Positions 6,313 through 40,010 are shown, counted from the first letter of the stretch. The stretch is 64,000 bases of DNA from an uncultured Erysipelotrichaceae bacterium (GCA_902785135.1 CACZXL010000002.1:10710-74709); one strand, 5' to 3'. Program-made: numbers and translations. The notes: generated by a model from the letters alone, not told the origin.

Positions 6313-6335
6313 AAGGAAACATTTAATGTTTCCTT
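6313..6335 (-). terminator. rho-independent terminator that encloses the stop codon of the 217-aa gene
   Basis: AAGGAAACA tttaa TGTTTCCTT hairpin with a flanking A/T run. Confidence 0.45.
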
Positions 6336-6987
6336 ATTCTATATCATAACTCCATGTTATTTTCTTTATTTTACCATAATGATATTCATATATTACTTTC
6401 GCAATTAAAGTAGGTTCATCTATATTTGTAACTGAGTCTCTATCAACATATTCTACTTTTTCTTTATCTCTATATCCAAAAGATATTTCTTTTGTTACTG
6501 ATTTATCTTTAATAGAATTTATATTGTATTTTCCATACATATAACTACCTGTTTTATTAATAACTTTATATTTTCTAAATACTTTAGTTATATGATTTCC
6601 TACTCTTATATTTCTACCTGTTTTATATTTTCTTTTTGTTACTTCTACTTTAACTACAACATAATCACCATAGTTTTCTTTTAAAGTTATCTTTAATCCA
6701 TCATATTCTTTATCTTTATAATTATAACCGTTTTTATTATATTCTTTTTCTTTATTAGGTTTTCCAAATTCTTTTTCAACTATATTTTCTTTATCCATAT
6801 ATTTAACTTTATTTATAACTAAATCTTCTACATTATATATAGTTTTATTATTTCTAAATAAAGTGATATTTGAAAAGTTTCTAAAGTTTCTAGAATATAT
6901 TATTAAAACAATTAAAGAAAGAAGGATAAAAGATACAATTAATATTTTTATATTATTGTTATTATTTTTTTTCTTATTCTTTTTCAT
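6334..6987 (-). CDS. membrane-anchored extracytoplasmic protein, partner of the large surface proteins (paralog of 34503..35162)
   Basis: K/N-rich N-terminus then a TM. It shares LF(R/K)N.K.I(Y/F)NV.DL.IN..YM..E..V.KEFGKP, YDG(L/F)KITLKE, KVEVT, VEYV(D/N)RD..TNID.P..IAK and ..I(T/V)WSYDI(E/Q) with the 219-aa protein. Confidence 0.6.
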   Translation of the reverse strand: MKKNKKKNNNNNIKILIVSFILLSLIVLIIYSRNFRNFSNITLFRNNKTIYNVEDLVINKVKYMDKENIVEKEFGKPNKEKEYNKNGYNYKDKEYDGLKITLKENYGDYVVVKVEVTKRKYKTGRNIRVGNHITKVFRKYKVINKTGSYMYGKYNINSIKDKSVTKEISFGYRDKEKVEYVDRDSVTNIDEPTLIAKVIYEYHYGKIKKITWSYDIE

Positions 6988-7001
6988 TCTTTTATCCCTT
7001 T

Positions 7002-10000
7002 CTATTTATTCATTTTTCTTTTTAAGATTAGTAATACTGCGATTAAGGCTGTTACAAATCCAATTACAAGTGCATATCTAACTCTAGTTTGACCTGTTTG
7101 AATATTTACTATTAATTCAGCACTAGATTTTGGAAGAATAACTATTTTTTCCGTCTTTGGTTTATTCGCAATTACACTTGAACCAAAGATTCTTCCATCT
7201 TCATCTACGAAGAATGTTGCGACATTTATAGTTTTCTTTGGTAATTCGTAACCTTCTGGTGCTTCTACTTCTAAGATTCTATATTGTCCTTCTTCTAATA
7301 AATATACTGTTGCTTTTCCGTTAGTTGTATCCATAATATAATTATTACTACTGTTATCAATCTTATAATAGTATTCTCCATCATCAGATTCAGTTAAAGA
7401 TACTGGAATATCAATATATTTCTTATCTTTGTTAAGTTTTTGTAACTTATACTTTCCTCCATCTAATGGATTATTATATTCATCATATTTATAGAATGTA
7501 AATGTACTTGGTTTATTTATCAATTCTTCATATGTATCAAATATTTGTTCTTTATCAGTTACTTTTACCATTACAAATCTATCTTCTTCTTTTTCAGGTA
7601 ATTCATAACCTTTTGGTGCTTTTATTTCTTCAATTACATAACACTTACCATATGTTAAATATTGAATTAATGCTTCACCTTTTTGGATTTGTACATGTTC
7701 AAGTCTACTATTTAATAATGTATTAAAGTCTGCGGATGTTCCTACATAAGATACATCATTTGTATCATATGTTAAGCTACTATTTATATCATTACATAAA
7801 GCTCCAGGTCTATCTTGACATGTTCTAAATTCTTTTGTATCACCTGTTTCTCTTGCTTCATAAACACCATCTCTTATTGTCTTTAATAACAATATTCCAT
7901 TTGTTTCTACTTTATTTGCAGGAATATCCATATTACATGTTTTAGCTTCACTAATAGTAAATGTAGCTCCCTCTAGTGTTTCACCATCTTGTGCATATTT
8001 TCTAATTAATAATGAAACTGGTTTATTAGCAACATTTACTTCTTCTACTTCAACCTTTTCTTGATCTACAGTAAATATAGTTTCAGCATGTCTACCTTCT
8101 GGTAATGAGTATTCTTTTGGAGATACAGTTTCAACTAATACATAAGTATAACCTGATGGTAAATATCTTAATATTAATTGACCTTTATCAGGATGTAAAT
8201 CTTTAACTACATTTCCAGTACTACTATTTAATTTAGAATATTTATAAACTTCAATACCTTTATCTTCAGCAACATCAGTTGTACCATCAGATCTTTCTAA
8301 TATTGCTCTAGGTTCAAAGTATACCAATCTAATATTATGATTAGATCTCTCTTCTATACTAGTATAATCAGTTGGATGACATTCACTATCACATTGATAT
8401 AATTCAAATGTAGTAGTCTCATCTGGTATAAGATAATTATATTTACTATCTCTCTTTTCTAGTTTAACTCTTGTTGGAATATTTTCTATTTCTCTTGTTA
8501 CTGATTCTTTATCTTCTGGTTCTGTATCTTTTAATACATATTTAACAACTGGATGTCCTTTATTATCAAATGGTAAACCTTCATATCTAAAGTAATTTGG
8601 TAATATAAAGTTTCCAGGTATTGTAGTTTGAACTTCTTCAATATAATATGTTTTATTTCTATATAAATTAGTAATCTTTAATTTACCTTTATAAGTATTA
8701 ATTCTTTCATATTGATTATCATTATCTATTTGAAGATATCTATATACATTACCTTCTTCTTCATTAGTTTCAGTATATTTTAAATCTAATATGTTACCTT
8801 CTTCATCCCTTAATACAAATTTAGCAGTATCAAATAACAATATATCTTCATCTAATGTAGCTTTATCATTTATTTTATAGTATTTATAGAAGTCACTCTT
8901 CTTAAATATTATTTCTGTTGGTGTATTTTCTACATTTTCATCTATTTCTATATAATCATTATTTGAATCATGAGATGTACCTCTAACAGTAAATAATGTT
9001 TCATCATTTACTCCACTAGTTGGATTATAATATCCATCTGGTGCGACTGTTTCTACTAATACATAATCACCCGCTGGTAAATATCTTAATACTAATAATC
9101 CTCCATCTGGATGAACATCTTTTACATTTATTTCATTTAATTTAGAATACTTATATACTTCTCTTCCAGGATCTTCTTGATCACCTTCAATAAGCGCTCT
9201 ATCAGTAAAGTATACTAATGTTCTTCCGTTTGCTAAACATTCATCTGTAGCACATTTATATACATTAAATGTAGTCTTATCATCATCAACTATTTCATTA
9301 GTTCTCTTATCTCTTTTAGCAAATGCTATTCTAGTTGGTTTATTAGAAATAACCTCTGTAACATCAGCATTATCAGCAGGTATATTCTCTGGTATATTAT
9401 ACTGAACATATGGATGTCCTTGCCAGTTCCAACCACTTGGTATACCTTCTGGTTTCTTAACTGTTGTTGGTAATATAAAGTTTTCATCTGTAGTAGTCTT
9501 AACTTCTTCTATATAATACTTTTCAGTTCTATATAAATGAGTTATTTTTAAACTACCATTACATGTATGAATTCTTTGAATAGTATTTTCTGAATTAACA
9601 GGTATATATCTATATTCACAAGTTCCATATTCATCTTTTAGATTAACAATATTACCATTCTTATCTCTTAATACAAATTCAGCAGTATCTAATACTTTTG
9701 GACTACTATCTTGTAATGATAATCTATCATTCTTATTATAGTATTTATAAATATCTTCTTTATTAAAGAATATTTGAGTATAATCATTAATTACATCTTT
9801 ACTTGTAGTAGTATTATTATCTGCGATTAAACCTACTGTCGTATCATTCGCATCTGTTGGATTATAGTATCCATCTGGTGCGACTGTTTCAACCGCTATA
9901 TATTTATAATTAGCATCAAGATATCTTAAGATTAATTCTCCTTGATATGGATGTAAATCCTTAACTGCACCTGTTCTACTATTTAATTTAGAATATTTAT

Positions 10001-13000
10001 ATACTTCTTTTCCTGGATCTTCAATATCACCAGCAATAGTACCCCTTGGAGTAAAGTATACTAATTCTCCATTATTCTTAGTACAGTTTTCTTCAGTACT
10101 TAAACATCTATAAATATTAAATGTAGTCTTCTCATCATCTACTTTTCTATTAGTTCTAGCATCTAATTTATTAAATACTATTCTAGTAGGTTTATTTTGA
10201 ATAACTTTTGTTACTAAAGAATCATCTGGTACAAATATAGGAATATTATATTCTACTTCTGGATGATTTGGTTCTAGTACAAAGTGTTTTGGATTAGTAC
10301 CACTTACTTCTTCTATATAATATTTACTATCTCTATATAAATGAGTAACTATTAATGTTCCATTTTTAGTTTTCATTCTTTGAACATTATTATCATCATT
10401 TACTGGTATATATCTATATTCACCATCTTGAACTTTTTTAAGATTTAATACATTACCATCTTTATCTTTAATAATAAATTCTGCTGTATCAAAAATCTTA
10501 GTATTATCAGTACTTGATACTACATCTGTATTATCATAATAACCATAGATATCAGCTTTATTAAGAATTATCTTAGTAGCTTTATTTCTAACATTATGAT
10601 GAGTATCTAAAACTGATGAACTTACTTCAAAGAATGTTTCTTCATTACCACCATTTGGATTATAGTATCCATCTGGTGCGACTGTTTCTACTAATACATA
10701 TTTTATATCTCCAGGTAAATATCTTAAGATTACTTCTCCATTAAATGGATGTAAATCTTTAACACCACCAGTTGATGCATTTAATTTAGAATATTTATAT
10801 ACTTCTTTTCCATCATCTTCATTATCACCTGTAATAGTTCCTCTAGGTTCAAAGTATATTAATGTTCTATCATTTATACCACATTCATCAGTATTACACA
10901 TATATACATTAAATGTAGTCTTTTCATCTAAAATAACTTCACTAGTTTTTTCATCAATTTTAACAAATTTAATTCTAGTAGGAGTATTTTCAATTAAGTT
11001 AGTAACATCTGCTTCATTATCTGGTAAATACTCAGGAACATTATATTCAACATATGGATGTCCTTGCCATTCCCAGTTAGCTGGTTTATTAGTTGGTTCT
11101 GGAACATTCTTAGGTAATATAAAGTTCTTTGGATTAGTTGTTTTAACTTCTTCTAAATAATACTTCTTAGTTCTTAATAAGTGAGTTATTGTTAATCTAC
11201 CATTATATGTATTTATTTCTTCTTCTGTATTATTACTATTAACTGGAATATATCTATATAATCCATCTCTAACTTTCTTAAGATGTAATATATTTCCATT
11301 TTCATCTCTTAATACAAATTTAGCAGTATCTAATAGTTTTTCATCAGAATTAATTCTAGCTTGATCTGTATTATTATAATATTTATATATATCATCTTTA
11401 TTAAAGTAAATCTTAGTTGGATCATTAGGTATATTTGTATTATTTAATGATACATCATTAGTAGTATGTTTAGAAACAGTAAAGTATGTTTCTCTATTTA
11501 ATGGTTCATAATAACCATCTGGTGCCTTAGTTTCAATAATTACATATTTATAATTTGATGGTAAATAATATAATATTAATTTACCTTGATTATATGGATG
11601 TAAACTATTAACAGTACCATTATTTAATTTAGAATACTTATATACTACTTCACCAGATATTGTAGTTTCTTGTTCAAATCTCATTAACTTTCTATCATCT
11701 GATTCACTACATTCATCTTCACTCTTACATTGATAAATCTTATATGTTGTCTTTGTATCATCTATAAGATCTGTATAATCTTCTCTATTAACTTTAGATA
11801 TAACTACTCTTGTTGGAGTATTATCCATAACCTTTATAACTTGCGCAGTTGGAACATAAATAGCTGGAACTTCATATTTAACATATGGATGTCCTTGCCA
11901 GTTCCAATTTGCTGGTTTAGGATTTGGTTCTTCTACATCAGTTTTTAATATAAAATGTTCTGGAGTTGTAGTAGATATTTCTTCTATATAATATTTTTTA
12001 GTTGTAGTTAATGAACCTCTATCTAAGTATCTAACTTTTAACACACCATTATAAGTTTGAATAGAACAATCTTCAGGTGTACTATCACAAATAGCAGCGT
12101 AATTATATATACCTCTTTCATTTGTTTCAGTTAATCTTAAAATATTTCCATTTTCATCTCTTAATACAAATTTAGCAGTATCAAATAATTTAACTGTACC
12201 ATTTTCAGTATTAATATCATTTTCATCATAATAATCATATAAATCTGATTTCATAAATGTTATTTCTGTTGGTGTATTAGGTACATTAGTATTATTAACT
12301 ATATTATCTGTATTAACTGTAAATGGTGTTTCTCTATCTTCATCATTTGGTTGATAATATCCATTTGGTGCGGTAGTTTCCACTAACACATATTTATAAC
12401 CTGCTGGTAAATATCTAAGAATCAATTCTGAAGAATGATCACTTACAAATGGATGTAATGTGCTTACTGCTCCTGTTGAAGAATTTAGTTTAGAATATTT
12501 ATAAGCTTCTTTTCCAGCATCAATATTTTCTGAAGATCTTATTTCTTCTCTTGGAGTAAAGTAAATTAATGTTCCTTGAGACTTAGTACATAATGGAACA
12601 GTATCAGGACATTGATATACTTCAAATGACATATCTTCAGTCATTACTGGTTCATTAGTTAATACATCTACTTTTGTAAATACTACTCTTGTAGGTGTAT
12701 TAGATATAACTCTAACTAATTCACTATATCCCATTAAATCAGTTGGCTTATATTTAGGTAATGTATATTTAACATATGGATGTCCTTGCCAGTTCCAATT
12801 TGCCGGTTTATCACTAGGTGCTGGTACATTAGTAGGTAAAGCAAAATGAGCAGGTGTTGTTGTCTTAACTTCTTCTATATAATATGTTTCTTCTCTTCTA
12901 ACATGAGTTACTAATAATTTACCATTATAAGTATTAATCTCTGTTGTTGTTCCTGTTGTATCAGAATATTCACCAAAAGGTAAATATCTAAATACTCCAT

Positions 13001-16000
13001 CTCTCATCTTCTTTAATCTTAAAATATTACCATTCTTATCTCTAACAGAGAATTTAGCAGTATCTAATAACTTAGTATTTTCATTTAATAAAGTTTGATC
13101 TTCTTTTGTATAGTATTTATAAATATCATCTTTTTCTAATAATAATTCTGTAGGTTCATTAGTTAAACTTACAATATGAGCTGCACCTGACATAGTAGTT
13201 TTTGGTATTACAAATTCTACAGATTGTTCAGCTGAAGGTTGATAATAACCACCTGGTGCATTTACTTCTACAGCTACATACTTATAATCAACAGGTAGAT
13301 ATCTCATTATTACACTACCTTGATATGGATGTAAATCTTTAGTAGCACCAGTACTACTATTTAACTTAGAATACTTATATACTTCCTTCCCTGGATCTTC
13401 AGTATCACCTGTTATAGTTCCTCTAGGAGAGAAATACACTAAAGTACCATTCTCTTTAGTACAATTTGTTACTGTTTCAGGACATTGATATATATTAAAT
13501 ACAGTTTCTTCACTATCTGCTTTTTCATTAGTTTGAGAATCTAATTTCCAAACTTCAAATCTAGTTGGTGTATCACTAATTGTACCTTTTGTACCAGTAG
13601 AAACTGATATACTACCTGGTTTATTTTGTGGAATTGTGTATGTTACTGTTGGATGAGGATTTGGTAAAGTATAAACTGTATATCTAGGAACAGATACTTC
13701 TTCTACAGTATAACTTCTACCTCTACATAAATTTGTTATATGTATATTACCACCACAAGTATTAAGAGTATCTACTCCAACACTTGAGTTACCTGGAACA
13801 TATCTATATTCTGCATAATCAGTACTTGAATTAGTACATGTTCCATGATTACCAACTTTAACAAGTTTTAAATAATTACCTCTATCATCTTTTAACTTAA
13901 ATCCAATTCTATCAAACGCACTAATTTCTTCATTATTTTCAAATTTTACTTTATCTGAAGCATTAAAATAACTATATATATCAGATTTTGTAAAATGTAT
14001 TTCTGTTCTATCATTTGCTAAACTTTGAGTAGCATTAACATGTGTAGTACAAGATGTTGAATTAGAATCAGCATTAGAACATTCATTTATAGTAAATTGA
14101 TGAGTAGAATTATTAGAATAACTTGGATAATAATAACCTGTTCCTCTACATGCATTATTAAATGTATCTGTACAACTATCAGTTGTATTTTCTTTTATAC
14201 TATAAGTTCCTACAGGTAAATGGTATACAACAATTTGTTTACTATTATTAATAAATAAATCTGTATAAGTAGTTCCTGTTGTAGGATCTATTCCGTTTCC
14301 AGAATATTCATATGAACCATCTGAATTTTGTCTAAAACTTAACTTTGTACTACCAGAATATATATTAAATGGTATTTTCTTTAATTCCGCTAACGAATAT
14401 GAATCATCACCTGTTGTAATTGACTTAGTAAATACAAACTTAGTTGGTTTATTATCAAATACAGTTGAATTTGTAAAGTTTATTCCTGCTGTTATATTTT
14501 TTGAAGCAGATGTACCAAAAGCATGGTTAGATGCTGGATGAGTTTCTACTACAGTATATGTTCCAGATGGTAAACCAGTTATACAAGCTTCACCTTTTCC
14601 TCCAATTGCACCTGTAGTTATTTCTGTTCCACTACCATTTACAGAACTATATTTGTAACAAGTTTTAGATACTCCAGCAGAATCAATTAAAGTTTCAGTT
14701 CCATTAACAACTACATACTGATTACTAGAATTTCTAACTTTAAATCTAGCGGCTGTTCTTTTATTAGTACTTCCACTTGTATTTCTTTCAACTTCTTTAA
14801 ACCAGTTAATTACATATTTATAGTTTGAAAACTCTATTGCAGTAGCTGTACAAGCTGAAGCATCAGTTTTAGATGCATTCTTTGTCATTAATGTAGGAGT
14901 AACTGTTTTTGATTCTGATGATTTTTGATATCCAGAAGCTGCGCCACTTTCTGTTACTGTTCTTTGTGAATTATCAGTACCAGTAAAGAAATAAGCATAT
15001 CCATCACTACCAGATGTCTTAGTAGCTGCATTATCAGCATAAGAACCTGTACCAGTAAATGTAAATCCACCTAAATATGTATTCCTTCCAGCCTTAGCTT
15101 CATTCGCATCTTTCTTTCTAACTCTAAAGCAATAATATTGTCTATGATCATCAACATTTGTATTACTACAAGATCCTTCTGTCGCAGATACTGCTATAAA
15201 TTCTCCTTCATGAGAATTCCACATACCACTAGTTCCATTAGCAGATGTTTCTTTTACATAATATGTACCACCAGATTGTAATCCTTCAAACTTAGCAACA
15301 CCATTTCCATCAGTTGTTTTTGATATACCCATGGATGCTTTTGAAGAGTTATATAATTCAAATGTAATACCAGATATTTTTCTATTAGTATCATCTGAAT
15401 CTCTTTTTGTTACCTGTGTACAATATACTTTATGAGTATTAGTAACAGTCGCGGTCGTATAATACATTCCTTCTGAATCAGTAGATGACGATTCAGAGAG
15501 AGTTACCTGACCATAATATTTACCACCAGACATCTTCTCATTAGAATATGACGTATGATAATTATCTTCTACGTCTGTACCTGGAGTACCATCACCATTT
15601 TCATGAACACAATAAGTTTTACCTAATTCTAGGAAAGCTCCTTGTGAAGAATTCCAACCTAAATAATATCTATTAGGTGTACTTGCACTTGTACTTCTAA
15701 CTGAATCAGATACTTTAGAACCTATTGTAGTACAATCTCCACTAGCACCTACATTATATAATTCAAAGGAACGCGCTGTATTTTCTGCAGGACTATGTGT
15801 TTTATCTACTTGAACATATCCTGTCTTTTTACCTTCGTAACTTACTTTTATATACGCATCACCATATTGCGTAGTGATTTGATCAGTAGTAAGTCTTAAA
15901 AGCATATAATCGTCGCCTAATTCTTCTAGGTATACAGATACATGCATATTAACATCCATTCCTACAGTATTTCCAACCTCTTGACATGGCATTGGAATAA

Positions 16001-17180
16001 ATGCAGGAGAAAAAGCAATACCATAATCATTAGCCATTCCTAATTCATTTAATGCATTAAGTTGGAATGCAAACGGATAAAAATGCATAGTGTTATCTAA
16101 ACTTCCACCACTAGTTAATGTTGAATAATATCCACTTTGATATTCACTAGAATACCAATAATATGTTCTATCATATGCAGCTTTATTATCTCCAACCCAA
16201 CCAGTTGTAATCTGTTTAGTACCATTAATAGTAGTACACCAATCTAAATCCATATCATCAAAACAATATCTAAAATATCCTGCAGGAACATAACTACCTA
16301 ATGACATACCAGAATGTAACAAGTTTAGTTTAGGTGAAACATGTCTTTCATCTAACGGAATTGCATTCATACTACTTACAGATATAGGTCCATTTAAAGC
16401 AGATACTTTAGTAAAGAAACTAAATTTATTATTTAATTCTATATTAATTTTATTTACTAATATTGGTGTAATCTTAATTGATACTTTACCATCTTTTATT
16501 GAATAGTTTTCTTTAGCAACTTCTTTTTTACTACCATTCAAATATATTTTAAAATCATCTTTTTTAACATCTTTACCAAACACTTTTTTTATAGTAAAAC
16601 TTGTTTCATCACTTCTACCATCATAATAAACTGTTTTAGAACTAGTAAAAATATTTTTTGATTTAATATTTATTTTTACTCTTTTGATATCTTTTTTTTC
16701 CATTCTAGTATCAAATTGTACTTGAACCGGAATTTCTTTTTCTTTTTTATCCTTGTAATATGAGAAAGGTATTTTTACAACATGAGTTTTTTTATCATAT
16801 GTACAATCTTTTAAAGTATTTCCATAAAAATCATTTAACGCAAATGTATAATTCTTAATACCTTTAACATATGATTCGTTTAAGAAATTAGATATATCAG
16901 CATATAAATAATTACCTTTTTTAGTTAATGGAATTGCTTCATATGTTCTATAAATAACTCCCTTACCATTATAATTTCTTAAAATTTCATAAATAGTATC
17001 ATCTTTTTTAACAACATTTTTATCTGCTATTGTATATAATACTTTTAAATTATATTTACTATCTTCTACAACTAAATCTTTTTTAAATTTTTTATTTTCA
17101 TTTATTTGTACTAAAAAGAAGCAAAATATAGCTAATAACAATAAAAGAAAAATACTTATTCTTATTTTTCTATTCTTCAT
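7002..17180 (-). CDS. giant (3392 aa) cell-surface adhesin with tandem Cna-B-type (prealbumin-fold) domains and a C-terminal sortase-type sorting signal (NIQTG variant)
   Basis: Signal peptide MKNRKIRISIFLLLLLAIFCFFLV. It has many Cna-B-like segments (VKETSANGTSG..., YLPAGYKYVLVETTAPNGYY) and about 8 tandem ~300-aa modules, each carrying ANWNWQGHPYV, NTPTR, a conserved Cys pair (YQC....C) and GKEVYKYSKLN. The C-terminus NIQTGQTRVR-YALVIGFVTALIAVLLIL-KRKMNK is a hydrophobic anchor plus a positive tail. Confidence 0.85.
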   Translation of the reverse strand: MKNRKIRISIFLLLLLAIFCFFLVQINENKKFKKDLVVEDSKYNLKVLYTIADKNVVKKDDTIYEILRNYNGKGVIYRTYEAIPLTKKGNYLYADISNFLNESYVKGIKNYTFALNDFYGNTLKDCTYDKKTHVVKIPFSYYKDKKEKEIPVQVQFDTRMEKKDIKRVKINIKSKNIFTSSKTVYYDGRSDETSFTIKKVFGKDVKKDDFKIYLNGSKKEVAKENYSIKDGKVSIKITPILVNKINIELNNKFSFFTKVSALNGPISVSSMNAIPLDERHVSPKLNLLHSGMSLGSYVPAGYFRYCFDDMDLDWCTTINGTKQITTGWVGDNKAAYDRTYYWYSSEYQSGYYSTLTSGGSLDNTMHFYPFAFQLNALNELGMANDYGIAFSPAFIPMPCQEVGNTVGMDVNMHVSVYLEELGDDYMLLRLTTDQITTQYGDAYIKVSYEGKKTGYVQVDKTHSPAENTARSFELYNVGASGDCTTIGSKVSDSVRSTSASTPNRYYLGWNSSQGAFLELGKTYCVHENGDGTPGTDVEDNYHTSYSNEKMSGGKYYGQVTLSESSSTDSEGMYYTTATVTNTHKVYCTQVTKRDSDDTNRKISGITFELYNSSKASMGISKTTDGNGVAKFEGLQSGGTYYVKETSANGTSGMWNSHEGEFIAVSATEGSCSNTNVDDHRQYYCFRVRKKDANEAKAGRNTYLGGFTFTGTGSYADNAATKTSGSDGYAYFFTGTDNSQRTVTESGAASGYQKSSESKTVTPTLMTKNASKTDASACTATAIEFSNYKYVINWFKEVERNTSGSTNKRTAARFKVRNSSNQYVVVNGTETLIDSAGVSKTCYKYSSVNGSGTEITTGAIGGKGEACITGLPSGTYTVVETHPASNHAFGTSASKNITAGINFTNSTVFDNKPTKFVFTKSITTGDDSYSLAELKKIPFNIYSGSTKLSFRQNSDGSYEYSGNGIDPTTGTTYTDLFINNSKQIVVYHLPVGTYSIKENTTDSCTDTFNNACRGTGYYYPSYSNNSTHQFTINECSNADSNSTSCTTHVNATQSLANDRTEIHFTKSDIYSYFNASDKVKFENNEEISAFDRIGFKLKDDRGNYLKLVKVGNHGTCTNSSTDYAEYRYVPGNSSVGVDTLNTCGGNIHITNLCRGRSYTVEEVSVPRYTVYTLPNPHPTVTYTIPQNKPGSISVSTGTKGTISDTPTRFEVWKLDSQTNEKADSEETVFNIYQCPETVTNCTKENGTLVYFSPRGTITGDTEDPGKEVYKYSKLNSSTGATKDLHPYQGSVIMRYLPVDYKYVAVEVNAPGGYYQPSAEQSVEFVIPKTTMSGAAHIVSLTNEPTELLLEKDDIYKYYTKEDQTLLNENTKLLDTAKFSVRDKNGNILRLKKMRDGVFRYLPFGEYSDTTGTTTEINTYNGKLLVTHVRREETYYIEEVKTTTPAHFALPTNVPAPSDKPANWNWQGHPYVKYTLPKYKPTDLMGYSELVRVISNTPTRVVFTKVDVLTNEPVMTEDMSFEVYQCPDTVPLCTKSQGTLIYFTPREEIRSSENIDAGKEAYKYSKLNSSTGAVSTLHPFVSDHSSELILRYLPAGYKYVLVETTAPNGYYQPNDEDRETPFTVNTDNIVNNTNVPNTPTEITFMKSDLYDYYDENDINTENGTVKLFDTAKFVLRDENGNILRLTETNERGIYNYAAICDSTPEDCSIQTYNGVLKVRYLDRGSLTTTKKYYIEEISTTTPEHFILKTDVEEPNPKPANWNWQGHPYVKYEVPAIYVPTAQVIKVMDNTPTRVVISKVNREDYTDLIDDTKTTYKIYQCKSEDECSESDDRKLMRFEQETTISGEVVYKYSKLNNGTVNSLHPYNQGKLILYYLPSNYKYVIIETKAPDGYYEPLNRETYFTVSKHTTNDVSLNNTNIPNDPTKIYFNKDDIYKYYNNTDQARINSDEKLLDTAKFVLRDENGNILHLKKVRDGLYRYIPVNSNNTEEEINTYNGRLTITHLLRTKKYYLEEVKTTNPKNFILPKNVPEPTNKPANWEWQGHPYVEYNVPEYLPDNEADVTNLIENTPTRIKFVKIDEKTSEVILDEKTTFNVYMCNTDECGINDRTLIYFEPRGTITGDNEDDGKEVYKYSKLNASTGGVKDLHPFNGEVILRYLPGDIKYVLVETVAPDGYYNPNGGNEETFFEVSSSVLDTHHNVRNKATKIILNKADIYGYYDNTDVVSSTDNTKIFDTAEFIIKDKDGNVLNLKKVQDGEYRYIPVNDDNNVQRMKTKNGTLIVTHLYRDSKYYIEEVSGTNPKHFVLEPNHPEVEYNIPIFVPDDSLVTKVIQNKPTRIVFNKLDARTNRKVDDEKTTFNIYRCLSTEENCTKNNGELVYFTPRGTIAGDIEDPGKEVYKYSKLNSRTGAVKDLHPYQGELILRYLDANYKYIAVETVAPDGYYNPTDANDTTVGLIADNNTTTSKDVINDYTQIFFNKEDIYKYYNKNDRLSLQDSSPKVLDTAEFVLRDKNGNIVNLKDEYGTCEYRYIPVNSENTIQRIHTCNGSLKITHLYRTEKYYIEEVKTTTDENFILPTTVKKPEGIPSGWNWQGHPYVQYNIPENIPADNADVTEVISNKPTRIAFAKRDKRTNEIVDDDKTTFNVYKCATDECLANGRTLVYFTDRALIEGDQEDPGREVYKYSKLNEINVKDVHPDGGLLVLRYLPAGDYVLVETVAPDGYYNPTSGVNDETLFTVRGTSHDSNNDYIEIDENVENTPTEIIFKKSDFYKYYKINDKATLDEDILLFDTAKFVLRDEEGNILDLKYTETNEEEGNVYRYLQIDNDNQYERINTYKGKLKITNLYRNKTYYIEEVQTTIPGNFILPNYFRYEGLPFDNKGHPVVKYVLKDTEPEDKESVTREIENIPTRVKLEKRDSKYNYLIPDETTTFELYQCDSECHPTDYTSIEERSNHNIRLVYFEPRAILERSDGTTDVAEDKGIEVYKYSKLNSSTGNVVKDLHPDKGQLILRYLPSGYTYVLVETVSPKEYSLPEGRHAETIFTVDQEKVEVEEVNVANKPVSLLIRKYAQDGETLEGATFTISEAKTCNMDIPANKVETNGILLLKTIRDGVYEARETGDTKEFRTCQDRPGALCNDINSSLTYDTNDVSYVGTSADFNTLLNSRLEHVQIQKGEALIQYLTYGKCYVIEEIKAPKGYELPEKEEDRFVMVKVTDKEQIFDTYEELINKPSTFTFYKYDEYNNPLDGGKYKLQKLNKDKKYIDIPVSLTESDDGEYYYKIDNSSNNYIMDTTNGKATVYLLEEGQYRILEVEAPEGYELPKKTINVATFFVDEDGRIFGSSVIANKPKTEKIVILPKSSAELIVNIQTGQTRVRYALVIGFVTALIAVLLILKRKMNK
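8000..13600 (-). repeat. about 8 tandem, diverged ~0.9-kb coding repeats (adhesin modules) inside the giant gene; boundaries approximate
   Basis: Protein-level periodicity of the motifs FTK.D.Y.YY / NTYNG.L.VTH / WNWQGHPYV / NTPTR / YQC / GKEVYKYSKLN / LRYLP..YKYV.VET.AP.GYY. Confidence 0.6.
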
Positions 17181-17781
17181 ATTTTACCTCCTCTTGTAAA
17201 TCTATACTAGATTCATTATTACTACCATTATAGTTTTTTAAATAATCATATTTTAATGAACCCTTTTTTAAAGCCTTTATTTCAATTGCTTTTATTTTTT
17301 CTTTTTTATTACCACTTGGATATCCATTGCATGTCCATTCTAACCATTTGTTTTTTTCATTATAAGTTCTATAACAAACATCAAACTTTTTATAAATATC
17401 TTCTGTCGATCCAATTTTAATTCCATTTATCACATTAGTATTTAATTTATCCCCAAAAGAATATTCTTCTGACCATTTATTTTTATTATTAAATAATCTA
17501 TATCCTATTTTACCCTTTTTATTAGTTTTAGCTTTTACTTGAATATTTAATATTTCATCTTTTTTATTTCCAGAAGTTTCACCATTTTTATACCATTTAG
17601 TCCATCCATTTTCTTTTGTATAAGTTCTATAATAAACTGTAACTTTATTAGAATTATTTATATTAAAAATAATTAAATTTATTAAACTAGAAACTAATAC
17701 TAATAACGCAACAATTAATAAACAAAATTCTTTTTTTGATAATACCTTTTTCTTATTATTCTTTTTAGTCATAAATAGCAA
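17170..17781 (-). CDS. membrane-anchored protein with two ChW (clostridial hydrophobic-W) repeats
   Basis: N-terminal TM, then two copies of YRTY..(E)(N/K)GW..W..NG..SGNKK..I.(A)I.IK, which resembles the ChW repeat. Its 3' end overlaps the start of the giant adhesin gene by 11 nt. Confidence 0.55.
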   Translation of the reverse strand: MLFMTKKNNKKKVLSKKEFCLLIVALLVLVSSLINLIIFNINNSNKVTVYYRTYTKENGWTKWYKNGETSGNKKDEILNIQVKAKTNKKGKIGYRLFNNKNKWSEEYSFGDKLNTNVINGIKIGSTEDIYKKFDVCYRTYNEKNKWLEWTCNGYPSGNKKEKIKAIEIKALKKGSLKYDYLKNYNGSNNESSIDLQEEVKYEE

Positions 17782-17852
17782 CTTCCTTCCCTATTTTCCC
17801 ATAATAACATTGTACTATTTTTTAGTATAAAAGTAAATGAAAACAAAAGAAA

Positions 17853-17874
17853 AAAACGAGTTTTTTCTCGTTTT
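17853..17874 (-). terminator. rho-independent terminator enclosing the stop codon of the 1505-aa gene
   Basis: AAAACGAG tttttt CTCGTTTT hairpin followed by a T-tract on the minus strand. Confidence 0.45.
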
Positions 17875-27391: not shown

Positions 27392-27396
27392 CTTTT

Positions 27397-28068: not shown

Positions 28069-28119
28069 TTTAATTTTAACATAAATAAATATAAAAAAAA
28101 AGTCTTACTTTTGTAAGAC

Positions 28120-29061: not shown

Positions 29062-29075
29062 AATTAATTCCTCCT

Positions 29076-31019: not shown

Positions 31020-31103
31020 CTACCTTACTAATAAAATTCTAACATATTATAAAAAAAATTGCTACAACATCTTTTTTATGATAAAATATTTATGGTGAAG
31101 TAA

Positions 31104-32185: not shown

Positions 32186-32194
32186 TTCTTGTTT

Positions 32195-33187: not shown

Positions 33188-33248
33188 AAGTACCTCCAAT
33201 ATAATTATATATAAAAAAGAAAAAGAAATCATTCTTTTTTTGATTATT

Positions 33249-33473: not shown

Positions 33474-33496
33474 AAACTCACCTCTAATAAAATATA

Positions 33497-34276: not shown

Positions 34277-34333
34277 ATAAAAATCTCCTTTCAAACCTAT
34301 AATGGTTTAAAAAGAGATATTTATTCAATTAAA

Positions 34334-34426
34334 TGGCGGAGCAGGAGGGATTTGAACCCTCGCGCCAGGTTACCCCAGCCTACATCCTTAGCAGGGACGC
34401 CTCTTCAGCCTCTTGAGTACTACTCC
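34334..34426 (-). tRNA. tRNA-Ser (anticodon GCU), 93 nt with a long variable arm and an encoded CCA
   Basis: Manual fold: acceptor stem GGAGTAG/CTGCTCC with one G-U pair, anticodon stem CGTCC/GGATG, loop CTGCTAA giving anticodon GCT, a long variable arm, T-loop GGTTCAAATCC, discriminator G plus CCA. Confidence 0.8.
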
Positions 34427-34482
34427 AAGCCGCAATTTAATTTTATCATTTATTGAGTTTAAGGTCAATATAAAACAAAAAA

Positions 34483-34506
34483 ATAAAGTCTATTTCTAGA
34501 CTTTAT
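34483..34506 (-). terminator. rho-independent terminator enclosing the stop codon of the 219-aa gene
   Basis: ATAAAGTCTA tttc TAGACTTTAT. Confidence 0.45.
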
Positions 34507-35162
34507 TGTATATCATAAGACCAAACTATTTTAGTTACCCTTCCATGTTTATAATTAATAATTAATTTTGCAATATTATTTGGAGTATCAATGTTAGTTA
34601 ATATTTTATCTCTATTAACATATTCTACTGTTGTTTTAGTTCTTTTACCATAATATATATTATCAGTTATTGTTTCATCTTCTAAAGCACTAGATGCATA
34701 ATTATTATAAATGTATCTATTCTTTTTATTAGATACTCTAAATTTATTCATAACTTTAATAATTCTTGTTCCAACTTTAATATTACCAGAAACAGATACT
34801 TTATTAGAAGTAACTTCTACCTTTGATATTTTATAAGTTTCATAGAATTCTTTTAAAGTTATTTTAAATCCATCATAATTATATACTTGATATTTTAAAC
34901 CATTAATATTTTTCTTATCAATACTCTTTGGTTTACCAAATTCTTTTTTAACATCTTTTTCAGTACTCATATAAGTTAAATCATTAATAGATAAGTCTGA
35001 AACATTAAATATTTCTTTCTTATTCTTAAATAAACTTATTCTAGAATAATCACTGAAAAAGCTTGATAAAAATATTGCCATCATTACTATAAATATAATA
35101 AATATAAATAGTAATAATACTTTCTTATTTGACATGAATGATAATTTTCTTTCTTTATTCAT
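34503..35162 (-). CDS. membrane-anchored extracytoplasmic partner protein (paralog of 6334..6987)
   Basis: N-terminal TM; shares the motifs listed for 6334..6987 and ends KIVWSYDIQ. Confidence 0.6.
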   Translation of the reverse strand: MNKERKLSFMSNKKVLLLFIFIIFIVMMAIFLSSFFSDYSRISLFKNKKEIFNVSDLSINDLTYMSTEKDVKKEFGKPKSIDKKNINGLKYQVYNYDGFKITLKEFYETYKISKVEVTSNKVSVSGNIKVGTRIIKVMNKFRVSNKKNRYIYNNYASSALEDETITDNIYYGKRTKTTVEYVNRDKILTNIDTPNNIAKLIINYKHGRVTKIVWSYDIQ

Positions 35163-35210
35163 AATAATACCCTTTCTCTTCTTATATAGTAAGTAAGGAG
35201 TAATAAAATA

Positions 35211-38200
35211 TTACTCCAATACTATATTATGTGTTGAAACTGTTATAACTGGTCTTACTTCTTTACCTGTATTAGCAGTAGCTGTTTTATTAATTTTATT
35301 TGTTCTATCTATATACATAGCTTTATTATGTACTGAATTTTGTTGAATACCATAATCAACTGGATTATATACAGCAGAACCATCTTTTTTAGCTATACTA
35401 TCACCATAAGCATTTATATATGGTTGTAAGTATTCTGGTGATATATAATCAGAATTTTGTAACCAGAAATCTCTACTTCCATTTAACCAAGATACATCAC
35501 TTAATCCTGCTCCTCCAGCAGCTTGTGATTTAGTTAAATATGAGTATTCAGCTAATGTTAATAATCTAACTTTAGATGTTGTATACATTCCTGAAATACA
35601 TGTTCCTTCACTTGCCATTGTTCCACCATATGATGCAGTTTGTAATCCTGAAGCATCATCACAAATTACTTGATCATATAATGTTGGTAAGTTTAATGTA
35701 TTAGTATTTTGCCATAAATTATTTAAGTATCCATTAATTTGTGAACTACTCCATCTATATGTTTCATCACTAGTTAATGTATGACCTTTATTTTCTGATA
35801 TAGTTCCAGAATCTGCCATTAATGTTAATATTTGGTTTCTATTTAAGTAAGAAGTAACGTCTCTTTCTTGTTCTTCTGTTAACTCACCATCAACATATCC
35901 TAAATCTACAATTGCTTGTTCTCTAGAAATATTATTAACAACATTAATAACATGCCAGTTAACTCCTGCATAAGTTAATGAATCACCTATTTTATAATCA
36001 TCATGACTAGATTCAGTCTTGTCATCTACTAAAACTTCAGGATCATACATTGTACTTTGAAGTACACTTGCAGTATTTAAGAATACTCCAGCTTCTTCTT
36101 GATTAGGCATATATAAAACTATTTGAAGATATTTTGTTTCTCCTGGTTTAATAACAGTATCTTCTAATGCTCTAGATTGTATTACACCATTTACTTCAAA
36201 CCAATCTTGGTTAGCTGGATCAGAACTATCAAACATCATTCCAGTTGGAATACTTTCTTCAATTAGATTAATATATCCTGACTTATATGAAGTATTTGTT
36301 ATAGATATACCATAATATACTTTAGCAGTAGCATTTAAACTATTTCTAACAGTTATAGTAACACTTGATTGATTATCATAATTAGTAGTATTAATTGAAC
36401 CATTATATGCTAAATCAACTCTTGTTATATATTTTTTCATATCAAAGCCTAAGCCACGTTTTGGAATAAATCCAATATCCATATCTTCAGCTGTTGTTAT
36501 TTCTTTAGTAAGTCTAATACCATTTGGATCATCAGGTATCTTCTTATTAGATATTTCTGCATTTCCGTTATCATCAACTTTATATGCATCTGAATCTTTA
36601 GAAGTATCTTCAGTAGCATATCTTAAAGTTAAATCATATTTATCTACTTCAAATGAGAATCCAATTTTATATCTACCTTTATCTAAATTCTTAAACTCAT
36701 AATAACCATTTTTATCTGTTGTAGCTTCAGCTACTGAAGATACATTATTGTTATTATCTATACTAAATAATGTAACTGAAATTCCAGATAAATATTTTTC
36801 ATTTCCATCTTTAACACCATTTCCAGTAACATCTATAAATGCTCTACCAGAAATCTTTCTTGTAACAACTTTAACTTTTATAACATTTGAATGATTCTTA
36901 GAATGAGTACTAGTTTCACCCATAAAGCTGTTATTATATGTATCACCATAATTATTATTCTTAGTTTTTAATGATAATTTAATATCTCCCATGTATTGTC
37001 CATGTGGAATATTAATATTTGATACTTTAATTGCTGTAACATTATCAACGTATTCTTCTGTAATATCACAATCATTCCATACATTTTGAGTATTATTAAC
37101 TTCTTTTTTAATATTTGCTGGAGTTTGTGATGAACACTTAATAGTTACTCCTGATAATGAATCTGGTAATTCAACTTTCGCACTATATGAACCAGATACA
37201 ATTGAATTATTTTCATCTTTAGAATATGGGAATACATCAATTATTGCATAATCATCAACATCAGTTCCTGTATTGTTATATGCTTTTAAAGTATAATTAA
37301 TTTCGCCATTTTTCTCAATTACAGTTCCACTATTACCTACTTCTTGTTGAACTATAATACTATTAAATCCTGTAGCATAAATTGTATATTTTGAAGATAA
37401 TGCTCCAACTATACTATTATCAGTTTCTCCATTAATATTTTGTGCATAAACTGAACTTTCCACAGTGATTGGTATTGGTGAATCATCTTCATTAGCATGT
37501 AATGTTGGTTTAATTCTAGTTCTGAATTCTATTTCAGGTATTTTCATATTAGGTTTAGTATAAGGTAATCTATAGAATAAATATGTACCATCTGCTCTAG
37601 ATTCAACACTTTCTGGTTGCATTAAATCATTATCTTTCATATATTCCATTTCATTTGGAATTTTAACTGAAACAATTAATGAATTAATATACCAAGAATC
37701 ATCTGCTCCTACAGTTTCATTATTATCTTCTATTATTGTCTTAACATTATAAGTAATAGTTTCATTATCTTTAATATCATAATTAGTTTTAGTAGATCCA
37801 TCTGAATTCTTATTCTTAACAGTTAATTCTTCTCTTGAAGTGAAACTAACTATTCTTAAAGAATCACCGAATGTACTATCATCTCCAGCAATTATTTCTC
37901 TACCTCTATATTGAGTCTTTTTATAGTTGTTTGGATTACATAAACTATCTTCTTCAAGTGATATGATTGGTGAATAGTAAATTAATTCTGAATCATAATC
38001 AGATGATGAAGTAACAACTGTTGCTTGATATGTTTGAGTTATATCTGATACATTTCTAACTCTAATATTAAATTCAACAGTTACAGAAATATTATCAGGA
38101 ACTTTAACTCCCTCTTTTGTTTGTATAATTGCTTTTGTTATATGTATTTCTTTATCTCCATCTTTAGCAGCTGTAATTCTATCAAATGTTTCTTCAACAC

Positions 38201-40010
38201 CTTCATTAGCTCTAATACATGGACCACCATATAAGTTTTGAATTTGATTTACATCATAATTTGCTAAATTACTAGCAACTGTAGCACATTGATTAATTGC
38301 CATTTCTTTATCATCTTCATCAGAGAAGTTTATTGAAGCAACATCATTTGCTACATAATTGCTTGAATCCCATGATCCTGAAACAAATTTAACTTCAAAA
38401 TCGCTTGGAGATATTCCTTCACACTTAGAACCTCCACAACTTAATTTAATATCATAATCTTTTCCATCTTCAATAGGTATAAATCTATATGCATTATCAT
38501 CAATTTTAAATACTTCTTTTAGCCCTTGATCAGATAATGTCTTATTATAATTAAATTTAGTTATATATTTGATTGTTGTTCCTTTTGATACAGCTCCTGT
38601 ACCATTAGTCATATTAACGCCAGCTACATTCTTATTAGTTGCTATCTTAGAACCAGTATTATCATAGAATGCAGTAGATACAGAAAAATCTGAATTTTCA
38701 TAATATTTATTAACTACACTAGCTGTTGCATTATTAAGTGCTAATGTAGCTCCTGTACTTGAACTTACACTACCATTAGCTGTATTCATATTAACAGTTA
38801 TATCTCTTTTTCTATCAGCTTTTGTTCTTGGTGAAAATACAGTTATTGCTACTGTAGATATATAATTATCTTTATTAGCAATTGAATTATTATCAGCACC
38901 TACACTTGGATATCCATAAGTTGCTACAAAATCATTAATTGATATTCCATAAGTATTATTTGATTTATTTGTTACTGAAACTTTACCAGGTGCAACTATT
39001 TCTTTATTTTTACTATTTGAATCAGATGTACTATATGGCATATTAACAACTATAGGTTCAATAACACCTTCATTCTTTTGAGCATATAATCTAATCCATT
39101 CTTCTTTAACAATTGGTGCTTCTGTACCATCTTGTGTAAATGATGCATCAAAATTAATTGATCCAGTTGGACTTGATAAACCTTTAATTCCAGCTGCTGC
39201 ATCACCATCAATTTTAATACCAGCTATATAAGTAATATATCTTCCAACTTTACCTTCATATACTGCACTTTGATGTTCACCAGTTGATGTCAATATATTT
39301 AATGAAGCAGTAGCTTCTTTTGAAGAAACAACTGTTGGCATATAGTTATTAAATCCAGGTGTAGAATTATAACTATTATTTTCATAAGAATAATAATTAA
39401 CACCTTCAGATATATTTCCTAAATATATACCTTCTTCTGTATCTGTACTTTCTTTTATATTAAATTTAGGATTTATCATAGTACCATTTGGTGCTCCTAA
39501 AACATATAATGTAATCGAATCATCTACAGAACTATATGTATCAGTTCCATCTAATGTATATTCACAAGTTGTCTTACCTGGAGCTTCATTTCTACTACAA
39601 GATACATACTTAGCTTCATCTTCTGTTAAAGTAACTGTTACTTTGATTTTTCTATCTTCAATCGTAGTTGCAGTTCCATCTTTAGCAGATATCGCAAAAT
39701 TAAATTCATATGTCAACATATCATATGATCTTACTATTCTGTTTGTTGAATTAGAATCATTACCTGCAACAAATCCTTCTACTTGAGAATATGCTGGAGC
39801 ATTTTCATTAGAATAATCTAATCCATCATTCACAAATGAACCATTACCAGTTTTAATAGAAGTCATAGTAGCTTTACTAACTCTAAAGTCATTATCACCA
39901 CTATTCGCACTTGTTACTGTATATATAACAAAGCTTAATCCTAATAAAACTATTAATAATGTTCCTAATATCATTATTTTTTTCTTTTTACTATTACCCA
40001 TACTTTTCAC
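35211..40010 (-). CDS. large (1599 aa) surface protein, paralog of 17873..22390 (SdrD-B-like domain plus W-rich C-terminal module)
   Basis: Motifs shared with the 1505-aa protein: NRIVRS.D, NP.F.IKE.TDTE.G..LG, GGPCI(K/R).N, ITK.IIQTKEG.K.P....VTV......RV.NV.DIT.TYQA.VV.S.SD.DS, GADDSW(F/Y)I, ISGR.FID...GV, GVNWHVI, DFWL.N, KEVRPVIT.S..NI. Confidence 0.8.
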   Translation of the reverse strand: MKSMGNSKKKKIMILGTLLIVLLGLSFVIYTVTSANSGDNDFRVSKATMTSIKTGNGSFVNDGLDYSNENAPAYSQVEGFVAGNDSNSTNRIVRSYDMLTYEFNFAISAKDGTATTIEDRKIKVTVTLTEDEAKYVSCSRNEAPGKTTCEYTLDGTDTYSSVDDSITLYVLGAPNGTMINPKFNIKESTDTEEGIYLGNISEGVNYYSYENNSYNSTPGFNNYMPTVVSSKEATASLNILTSTGEHQSAVYEGKVGRYITYIAGIKIDGDAAAGIKGLSSPTGSINFDASFTQDGTEAPIVKEEWIRLYAQKNEGVIEPIVVNMPYSTSDSNSKNKEIVAPGKVSVTNKSNNTYGISINDFVATYGYPSVGADNNSIANKDNYISTVAITVFSPRTKADRKRDITVNMNTANGSVSSSTGATLALNNATASVVNKYYENSDFSVSTAFYDNTGSKIATNKNVAGVNMTNGTGAVSKGTTIKYITKFNYNKTLSDQGLKEVFKIDDNAYRFIPIEDGKDYDIKLSCGGSKCEGISPSDFEVKFVSGSWDSSNYVANDVASINFSDEDDKEMAINQCATVASNLANYDVNQIQNLYGGPCIRANEGVEETFDRITAAKDGDKEIHITKAIIQTKEGVKVPDNISVTVEFNIRVRNVSDITQTYQATVVTSSSDYDSELIYYSPIISLEEDSLCNPNNYKKTQYRGREIIAGDDSTFGDSLRIVSFTSREELTVKNKNSDGSTKTNYDIKDNETITYNVKTIIEDNNETVGADDSWYINSLIVSVKIPNEMEYMKDNDLMQPESVESRADGTYLFYRLPYTKPNMKIPEIEFRTRIKPTLHANEDDSPIPITVESSVYAQNINGETDNSIVGALSSKYTIYATGFNSIIVQQEVGNSGTVIEKNGEINYTLKAYNNTGTDVDDYAIIDVFPYSKDENNSIVSGSYSAKVELPDSLSGVTIKCSSQTPANIKKEVNNTQNVWNDCDITEEYVDNVTAIKVSNINIPHGQYMGDIKLSLKTKNNNYGDTYNNSFMGETSTHSKNHSNVIKVKVVTRKISGRAFIDVTGNGVKDGNEKYLSGISVTLFSIDNNNNVSSVAEATTDKNGYYEFKNLDKGRYKIGFSFEVDKYDLTLRYATEDTSKDSDAYKVDDNGNAEISNKKIPDDPNGIRLTKEITTAEDMDIGFIPKRGLGFDMKKYITRVDLAYNGSINTTNYDNQSSVTITVRNSLNATAKVYYGISITNTSYKSGYINLIEESIPTGMMFDSSDPANQDWFEVNGVIQSRALEDTVIKPGETKYLQIVLYMPNQEEAGVFLNTASVLQSTMYDPEVLVDDKTESSHDDYKIGDSLTYAGVNWHVINVVNNISREQAIVDLGYVDGELTEEQERDVTSYLNRNQILTLMADSGTISENKGHTLTSDETYRWSSSQINGYLNNLWQNTNTLNLPTLYDQVICDDASGLQTASYGGTMASEGTCISGMYTTSKVRLLTLAEYSYLTKSQAAGGAGLSDVSWLNGSRDFWLQNSDYISPEYLQPYINAYGDSIAKKDGSAVYNPVDYGIQQNSVHNKAMYIDRTNKINKTATANTGKEVRPVITVSTHNIVLE

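Follow-up and report, generated by a model that had tools for sequence, protein, structure and literature searches.

Small membrane proteins beside giant surface proteins: a four-family adhesin module in Erysipelotrichaceae-like gut bacteria

Giant adhesins decide the attachment of gut bacteria, and the export, folding and retention of proteins of 1500-3400 residues are poorly understood beyond the sortases. A 64,000-nucleotide stretch of DNA from an uncultured Erysipelotrichaceae bacterium (GCA_902785135.1, CACZXL010000002.1:10710-74709; the window in what follows) raises the question of what small membrane proteins do beside such giants. An earlier note on this DNA had described two paralogous cassettes, each with a gene for a giant surface protein and a gene for a small partner, and had proposed that the two products form a two-component surface unit. 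Here, we describe a computational analysis of these cassettes and their relatives. The window contains one full and one reduced copy of an adhesin module of low-GC, spore-forming gut Bacilli, represented by Erysipelotrichaceae-like metagenome-assembled genomes (MAGs), and this module comprises four families, called B, C, G and S. We propose, with a probability of roughly 0.55, that the small protein S, tethered to the membrane and able to bind proteins, assists the giant adhesins as an accessory factor; its main site of action would be the end of G nearest the membrane, with B as a possible second target.

Gene order of the two cassettes

The window has a G+C content of about 25%, and the members of both cassettes lie on its minus strand (positions are counted from its first letter):

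17873..22390, minus strand: BigA, family B, 1505 aa; its exact sequence is present, without a name, in public assemblies
17170..17781, minus strand: C, ChW-like bitopic protein, 203 aa when counted from TTG
7002..17180, minus strand: G, SpaA-repeat giant adhesin, 3392 aa
6334..6987, minus strand: S1, family S, 217 aa, starting 14 nt past the G stop codon
35211..40010, minus strand: BigB, family B, 1599 aa, secreted multidomain surface protein
34503..35162, minus strand: S2, family S, 219 aa, bitopic, 48 nt past BigB

Locus 1 reads BigA, terminator-like hairpin, C, G, S1, and locus 2 reads BigB, a 48-nt gap, S2. G lies inside the region covered by the earlier note yet went unmentioned there, and it is G that S1 actually follows. 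The statement that each large gene is followed by a homolog of ~218 aa is correct for BigB and S2, 48 nt apart, and incorrect for BigA, where the hairpin, C and G intervene before S1; the unit is one of four families rather than two. The homology of the two small proteins was confirmed (47% identity, E=9e-55), as were the motifs KEFGKP, YDG[LF]KITLKE and I[TV]WSYDI quoted for both. Likewise YGGPCI[KR]xN, ITKxIIQTKEG and KEVRPVIT.S..NI all occur in both B proteins. The relationship between BigA and BigB goes well beyond the motif-level identity first reported, since the two align over their full length with 40% identity (1074 bits, E=0).

Candidate transcription signals divide these genes as follows:

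17853..17874, minus strand: terminator-like hairpin directly past the BigA stop codon, with an 8-bp stem and then TTTCTTTTGT
17809..17837, minus strand: promoter-like site for a C-G-S operon, TTTACT-17-TACAAT
6313..6335, minus strand: terminator-like hairpin directly past the S1 stop codon, with a 10-bp stem and then the T-run TTTTTGACAT
40028..40056, minus strand: promoter-like site upstream of BigB, TTGAAA-17-TATAAT with an upstream TG, 11/12 matches

Between the BigA terminator and C lies a ribosome-binding site, GGAAGGAAG. The ATG at 17772, which gives a C protein of 200 aa, is likely to be the true start rather than the TTG at 17781, because the TTG abuts this ribosome-binding site and the ATG stands 9 nt downstream of it. 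The C stop codon overlaps the start of G by 11 nt, the G ATG is preceded by GAGGAGG, and the junction between G and S1 reads TAG-AAAGGGATAAAAGA-ATG. The simplest reading of these signals is that BigA would be monocistronic and that C, G and S1 would make up an operon with coupled translation and a terminator at its end. At locus 2 the gap between BigB and S2 contains a 7-bp inverted repeat without a clean T-run (35190-35210, minus strand; GGAGTAA-TATTTTA-TTACTCC), which might act as a weak attenuator, or as a hairpin that affects RNA stability, in a putative transcript, and S2 has a Shine-Dalgarno-like GAAAGGG 8-9 nt ahead of its ATG. BigB and S2 are probably co-transcribed. We read locus 2 (B-S) as a reduced derivative of locus 1 (B-C-G-S) from which C and G would have been removed.

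The module in related loci

Related loci were gathered by look-ups anchored on S and by a metagenome scan anchored on the C-terminal region of B (33 loci), and some 60 loci were compared with profiles of the four families. Most have the order C-G-S-B. The order B-C-G-S is found at locus 1 of the window and in L056 and L060-L062, B-G-S in L032 and L033, and B-G-S-C in L058; S is divergent from B-G in L001-L004, L009 and L022, and in L023-L025 G-S is followed by housekeeping genes. B-S occurs solely at locus 2 and in its ortholog, L006-L008. The synteny comparison that had been suggested for the big-plus-small pairs shows the module to be conserved, and it restricts direct B-S adjacency to locus 2 and this ortholog. 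S is present at every B-anchored metagenome locus with enough flank, and B is present in every module seen. We regard C-G-S as the invariant core of the module and B as an obligatory companion whose position varies.

The gene immediately upstream of S was tabulated for 22 clusters at 90% identity. It is G in 16 (L033 and L019, each checked individually, are included), a same-strand B in two, a divergent B in two and an unrelated gene in two. Spacing follows the same division: C-to-G junctions span -11 to 12 nt and 29 of 31 G-to-S pairs are separated by 2-16 nt, and S-to-B and B-to-S gaps measure 81-128 nt and 48 nt, respectively. The flanking chromosomal genes vary from locus to locus (spoIIP/lepA, sigG, serS/topA/holA, dtd and others), so the association of B, C, G and S is not that of one frozen region. 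Adjacency persists over at least five gene orders, one inversion and duplications within a genome (L005 and the window). Because the S genes of this clade always stand beside giant genes, across rearranged architectures and chromosomal contexts, a dedicated functional link between S and giant surface proteins is a reasonable inference from gene neighbourhood. The dedicated small partner of the earlier proposal is retained in this sense, with its tightest coupling to G and not to B. A role for S in sporulation, suggested by the proximity of spoIIP and sigG, was rejected because other genomes have different neighbours.

The S and B trees agree on orthologous pairs, and their paralogs are deeply diverged (40-50% identity). 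By this measure the two cassettes of the window are old paralogs and not recent variants. The suggestion that they serve antigenic variation was discarded: the paralogs are 40-47% identical, no switching repeats were found, and the window ORFs scanned include no reverse-transcriptase gene.

Evolutionary distances were compared by the mirror-tree approach in 12 modules. Spearman correlations (rho) with S ectodomain distances were 0.63 for the last 200 aa of G, 0.53 for full-length B, 0.33 for the B C-terminal module and 0.31 for the first 350 aa of G. The G C-terminus is the most conserved piece, with 57% identity versus 31% for the G N-terminus. This result is weak, all parts being co-inherited, and is suggestive in that it points in the same direction as the gene junctions.

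Metagenomes in which the module was seen come from sheep ileum, rumen and human gut. The window also carries smc, rnc and lepA as well as spoIIP and sigG, and genes such as these last two mark its organism as a spore-former. Further surface proteins were observed next to the module in some loci. Past B, a giant open reading frame (ORF) with the N-terminus MKMKKYLGKIKYVILTTLIVLFLF, truncated at the locus boundary after more than 3290 aa, was found at L042:5111-14992, L053:4668-14549 and L066:4535-14413; it has no G match at E<=1e-8 and appears to be a third type of giant that accompanies the module in some genomes. A partial ORF with a Bact_surface_Ig-like Pfam match, located a short distance upstream of the module, recurs in two unrelated loci (L005:1-795 and L033:1-654) and may be a fifth associated surface protein.

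Domain architecture of the four families

G is the member most readily placed among known surface proteins. It scores 202.6 bits against SpaA (PF17802) in Pfam and 100.9 bits against the SpaH/EbpB pilin-type domain in NCBIfam, and at about 8000-13600 its gene contains internal tandem repeats, about seven diverged units of ~800-920 nt each with 60-85% nucleotide identity. A sequence search of the PDB with G gave nothing significant. Its homologs range from 1300 to 3400 aa, with a variable N-terminus and a conserved C-terminus. G ends in ...SAELIVNIQTGQTRVRYALVIGFVTALIAVLLILKRKMNK, and this end has the form of an LPXTG-type sorting signal:

7005..7106, minus strand: sorting-signal-like segment at the C-terminus of G, in which NIQTG precedes a hydrophobic helix and KRKMNK

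In all G homologs the sequence SAELIVNI[QS]TG is conserved and followed by a transmembrane (TM) segment and a K/R tail, an arrangement that makes G a putative sortase substrate, which would be attached covalently to the wall. A search with a TLxTC-type regular expression and Pfam scans of the window ORFs found no sortase gene in the window or the related loci; one is possibly encoded elsewhere in the genome. G thus shares its SpaA repeats, its SpaH/EbpB-type domains and its NI[QS]TG, helix and K/R tail with the sortase-anchored SpaA/Cna-B adhesins and pilins of SpaH/EbpB type, and NI[QS]TG is close to the NVQTG motif that is cleaved by SrtB of C. difficile (PMC4155245). It differs from these proteins in having no sortase gene in the window or the related loci, and in that conservation runs well past the pentapeptide (SAELIVNI[QS]TGxxx[RK]Y). 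The gene for G is flanked by those for C and S, two small bitopic proteins without known counterparts in pilus loci or in loci for microbial surface components recognizing adhesive matrix molecules (MSCRAMM), and, unlike the sortase-anchored adhesins, the accompanying B proteins have no sorting signal at all. A sortase-assembled pilus operon was accordingly rejected, as family clustering and motif regular expressions in ~60 loci detected no sortase in the module and only G has a sorting signal.

The C protein scores 21.0 bits against ChW (PF07538), just under the cut-off of 22, and its L005 homolog scores 17.6 bits; C has no match in NCBIfam. Homologs of ~190-200 aa are located 5' of G in other loci. 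C was also considered as a homolog of S and found to be unrelated (E=0.85).

B proteins form a family with a clear boundary: 82 clusters have lengths of 1461-1600 aa and 38-68% identity, and beyond them similarity drops sharply. All entries are unnamed or labelled 'hypothetical protein [Bacilli bacterium]'. A scan of genome contigs, keyed on a low-complexity N-terminal pattern, recovered at least two full-length relatives among the matches listed, in a sheep-ileum Bacilli MAG and an Erysipelotrichaceae rumen MAG. Each B protein of the window contains one SdrD_B domain above the Pfam gathering threshold and ends in a conserved module:

19058..19342, minus strand: SdrD_B domain of BigA, PF17210, 50.7 bits against a cut-off of 29.7
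36564..36848, minus strand: SdrD_B domain of BigB, residues 1055-1149, PF17210, 55.9 bits against a cut-off of 29.7
17876..18529, minus strand: C-terminal module of BigA, DUF6273-like, residues 1288-1505
35214..36038, minus strand: C-terminal module of BigB, residues ~1325-1599, homologous to the modelled BigA module

Nothing else in BigA or BigB reached threshold in Pfam or NCBIfam, the latter alone being empty for B, and a PDB sequence search with BigB gave nothing significant. The single SdrD_B domain recalls the staphylococcal SdrD-type B-repeat proteins (PF17210). B differs from these in having one B repeat in ~1500 aa, no serine-aspartate (SD) repeat region, no A-domain match and no LPXTG, and in that the rest of the protein, up to the DUF6273-like head at its end, has no family assignment. 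Neither BigA, which ends in ...KEVRPVITISSKNIID, nor BigB, which ends in ...KEVRPVITVSTHNIVLE, has a hydrophobic tail; as the earlier note had observed, B shows no C-terminal LPXTG-type sorting signal and no choline-binding or S-layer match.

The N-terminal anchoring that had been claimed for B is doubtful. The residue equivalent to BigB A35 is alanine in 81 of the 82 family members, with T, V, A, I or S at -3, D, N or S at +1 and an uncharged stretch of at least 14 residues ahead of it, which fits a typical signal peptidase I site. Since the conserved A35 region resembles such a site, B is more likely to be released from the membrane by cleavage of a signal peptide than to remain anchored at its N-terminus.

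The C-terminal module of BigA matches Pfam DUF6273 over positions 20-171 of the 172-position profile, with a score (18.8 bits, E=0.0015) below the 23.5 gathering cut-off, and the BigB fragment has no DUF6273 match in Pfam. An AlphaFold2 (AF2) model of the BigA module has a mean predicted local distance difference test (pLDDT) score of 90 and shares its fold with recognised DUF6273 proteins: its BFVD matches (E=1.8e-6 to 1e-3, probability 1.0, TMq 0.54-0.59) include phage proteins of the DUF6273 type and one receptor-binding protein. In the PDB it finds weak C-type-lectin-like matches (E=0.09-1), namely the C-terminal domain of Legionella Lcl, snake-venom lectin-like proteins and BDCA-2; a PDB sequence search with the B C-terminal profile gave nothing significant. 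A homolog search with the B C-terminal fragment alone returned 4 matches. The B C-terminus is conserved across the 82 family members, in which RPVI keeps its R, V and I without exception. A C-type-lectin-like character has been ascribed to DUF6273 in phage receptor-binding proteins (PMC10743442), and the N-terminal domain of the T. ramosa IgA protease, a surface enzyme of an Erysipelotrichaceae species, is also a DUF6273 (PMC12402451). Since it is DUF6273-like with a C-type-lectin-like fold, the modelled B module looks like a distal ligand-binding head and not like a docking site for a membrane partner. The whole protein would then consist of beta-rich stalk domains, one of them SdrD_B, and a C-terminal lectin-like head. 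The head aligns to nearly the whole profile of DUF6273 (PF19789), the family of the phage tentaclins, of the targets of diversity-generating retroelements (DGRs) and of the Thomasclavelia ramosa IgA protease ThomasA. It departs from these proteins in its sub-threshold score, in the lack of a DGR and in its C-terminal position within a cellular protein of ~1500 aa. DGR-driven variation of the head was considered and rejected: there is no template/variable repeat pair, no reverse transcriptase is encoded among the window ORFs scanned, and the direct repeats that touch the 3' ends of BigA and BigB reflect only the paralogy of the two genes.

S1 and S2 have no Pfam match at E<=0.01, and neither reaches threshold for any member of clan PepSY (BamE/SmpA_OmlA, DUF3862, DUF4309, CAP_assoc_N); an S homolog, L005:18090-18734, scores 23.0 bits against BamE, whose cut-off is 23.2. 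NCBIfam has nothing for S, and the S profile finds no relative in the PDB at the sequence level. An AF2 model built with 27 homologs (mean pLDDT 85.9, predicted template modelling score 0.78) shows a TM helix at residues 13-36, in agreement with the N-terminal TM segment noted earlier, and then two repeats, each made of a short helix and a four-stranded antiparallel sheet, as in BLIP-like and YfeY-like proteins. The top five Foldseek matches are 3d4e, two chains of 4h0a, 2qzb and 4ygt (probability 0.84-1.0); their TM-scores are low, 0.23-0.38, for which the N-terminal helix and the relative orientation of the repeats may account. These structures are S. mutans 3D4E, the CAP_assoc_N protein SAV1118 of S. 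aureus (4H0A), E. coli YfeY (2QZB) and the DUF4309 protein YjgB of B. subtilis (4YGT). S is thus predicted to be a bitopic protein of ~215 aa with a tandem BamE/BLIP-like ectodomain, and it differs from its BLIP/BamE-fold counterparts in being TM-anchored rather than a lipoprotein or soluble. It was rejected as a sortase: S1 and S2 contain no cysteine, the S alignment has no conserved Cys column, and the fold is BLIP-like.

A search of 1.84 billion representatives with the S profile delineates a narrow core, 14 representatives lying below E=1e-30 (~14 at 50% identity); the family amounts to 26 clusters at 90% identity. Its second repeat carries the clade-specific invariant motifs YxYGNY, GxR, YVNRD and WSYD, and Y150, Y152, R174, R184, D185, W214, Y216 and D217 count among the residues of S that do not vary. 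Beyond the core there is a long tail in which mostly only profile positions ~45-150 are aligned, and whose members carry BamE, CAP_assoc_N and DUF3862 matches, some of them being fused to BlaR1-type sensors or zinc ribbons. A sister subfamily (P0035, P0036), found at L029:5968-6675, L030, L031 and L068:6688-7344, has the same TM and tandem BLIP-like architecture without the YVNRD and WSYD motifs. Its genes come after a pair of M16 peptidase genes, in some cases together with an ABC-2 transporter gene, and adjoin spoIVB; the subfamily has the appearance of a housekeeping sister to the adhesin-linked clade and may represent the ancestral state of S.

Other genes of the window were noted in passing. 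Between the two cassettes lie a gene for an ortholog of C11 (clostripain-like) peptidases (29076-31019, minus strand; Pfam annotation from the syntenic L006) and, after it, one whose product combines a zinc ribbon with a TM segment and an ectodomain (28120-29061, minus strand), and the synteny of this pair is kept in L006. A secreted transglutaminase-core-like protein of 309 aa (22847-23776, plus strand; PF01841, 24.7 bits) is encoded divergently from BigA, and its gene does not recur beside the module in other loci. Farther away, two adjacent minus-strand genes (60337-61185 and 61211-62905) encode proteins of 282 and 564 aa without Pfam matches; segments of 190-300 nt that the two genes have in common at 80-86% nucleotide identity point to a recent tandem duplication. 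A chagasin-family I42 peptidase inhibitor is encoded by the gene that comes next, 62977-63360.

The role of family S

In our proposal S would be embedded in the membrane, its protein-binding ectodomain facing outwards, and would act on giant adhesins as they emerge from the Sec translocon. Its target would most likely be the conserved membrane-proximal C-terminal part of G and secondarily B, and it would serve in assembly, holding or retention before attachment to the wall by a sortase encoded elsewhere. Chaperone, retention factor and processing gate are alternatives that we leave side by side. Non-sortase accessory proteins are found in Gram-positive pilus loci, an example being the signal-peptidase-like SipA/LepA of S. 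pyogenes. By analogy S, a small membrane protein inside an adhesin operon, might likewise help the assembly of a sortase substrate; unlike SipA/LepA, it is BLIP-like and not of the signal-peptidase fold, no homology between the two was found, and the locus has no pilin polymerisation machinery.

Several points weigh against this proposal. Locus 2 has S and B but neither G nor C, a misfit with a strictly G-specific role, and a sortase substrate has no obvious need of an additional membrane partner. P0035 and P0036, related to the S profile at E ~1e-44, stand beside M16 peptidase, ABC-2 transporter or SpoIVB genes with no giant gene in view; small-protein homologs without a large protein had been named in the earlier note as what would argue against a partnership, and these distant relatives are in part such a case. 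The mirror-tree comparison comprises only 12 modules with shared ancestry, all loci come from one narrow lineage, so that part of the conserved order may itself be shared ancestry, and the promoter and terminator calls are consensus matches only.

It is conceivable, if rather unlikely, that C and S together form a dedicated membrane platform, lying on either side of G in the membrane and binding its unusually conserved C-terminal stem and sorting signal (SAELIVNI[QS]TGxxx[RK]Y). Such a platform would control the hand-over of G to a distant sortase or, with no sortase involved, would keep both G and the anchorless, lectin-headed B on the surface; a BLIP/cystatin-like fold would then have been co-opted for an assembly or gating role specific to adhesins. 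Somewhat less probable still is that S is a partner of B alone, an anchor or receptor that binds the B C-terminal module and keeps this otherwise unanchored protein at the cell surface. With no wall-sorting signal and a signal peptide that is probably cleaved off, B needs some tether; it occurs in every module seen, and the 48-nt gap between BigB and S2, with no strong terminator in it, belongs to an arrangement that is kept in L006-L008. Against this, S lies directly 3' of G and not of B in 16 of the 22 clusters, a terminator, C and G separate BigA from S1 at locus 1, and the S-to-B spacers of 81-128 nt contrast with the 2-16 nt between G and S. The B C-terminal module, which the earlier note had put forward as the interface for S, has the fold of the distal ligand-binding head of phage receptor-binding proteins (PMC10743442), and its distances are only weakly correlated with those of S (rho 0.33, versus 0.63 for the G C-terminus). 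A polymorphic toxin and immunity pair was rejected, as the B C-terminus is conserved and lectin-like, S mostly follows G, which ends in a sorting signal, and Pfam and NCBIfam scans found no toxin domain.

We give about the same low weight to the view that S is a general envelope protein with no adhesin role, its adjacency to giants being a gene order inherited in a narrow lineage. The family is indeed taxonomically narrow (26 clusters at 90% identity), related bitopic BLIP-like proteins occur in housekeeping contexts, and the S fold is a widespread generic extracytoplasmic module. Adjacency has, however, outlasted at least five gene orders, an inversion, within-genome duplications and unrelated contexts (spoIIP, sigG, serS/topA, dtd and others), and G-to-S junctions of 2-16 nt indicate co-translation. 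Least probable of all, and in our judgement quite improbable, is a membrane-tethered inhibitor or protective factor that blocks a transpeptidase, or a protease that clips the adhesin stalk, and so gates the processing of the giant proteins. The BLIP-like, YfeY-like and BamE families, whose fold S matches, belong to Pfam clan PepSY, are merged with cystatin-like proteins in ECOD and include several enzyme inhibitors (PMC11836899), and the window encodes both the C11 peptidase ortholog, so annotated in Pfam from L006, and the chagasin-type inhibitor. This idea is opposed by Pfam and NCBIfam scans of B, C and G, which detected neither an enzyme nor a toxin domain, by the lack of any protease or sortase gene that recurs in the module, and by the C-termini of the large proteins, which are conserved and not polymorphic as they would be in toxin-immunity pairs. 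We return to S as an accessory factor of the giant adhesins as the reading that we favour.

The view that these proteins are undescribed holds for whole proteins: none of B, C, G and S belongs as a whole to a Pfam or NCBIfam family, and none is named in the sources consulted. B, C and S reach no curated family threshold as whole proteins and have no public name, and the locus is best described as a Gram-positive adhesin locus with new accessory proteins. Our search of the open-access literature found no description of the B/C/G/S gene combination and, in the open-access text searched, no report of a BLIP/BamE-type fold linked to adhesin loci. Small hypothetical genes in adhesin operons are unsurprising; here the coupling is conserved and clean, with two small bitopic proteins, C and S, stoichiometrically coupled to a fibre with a sortase signal, alongside a lectin-headed secreted protein. 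Were the proposal wrong, the module would be merely a lineage-specific adhesin operon. If S or C is an assembly, retention or gating factor, it would represent a new accessory class for surface display in Gram-positive bacteria, and one clade of the widespread, mostly uncharacterised BLIP/BamE-like fold would gain a function.

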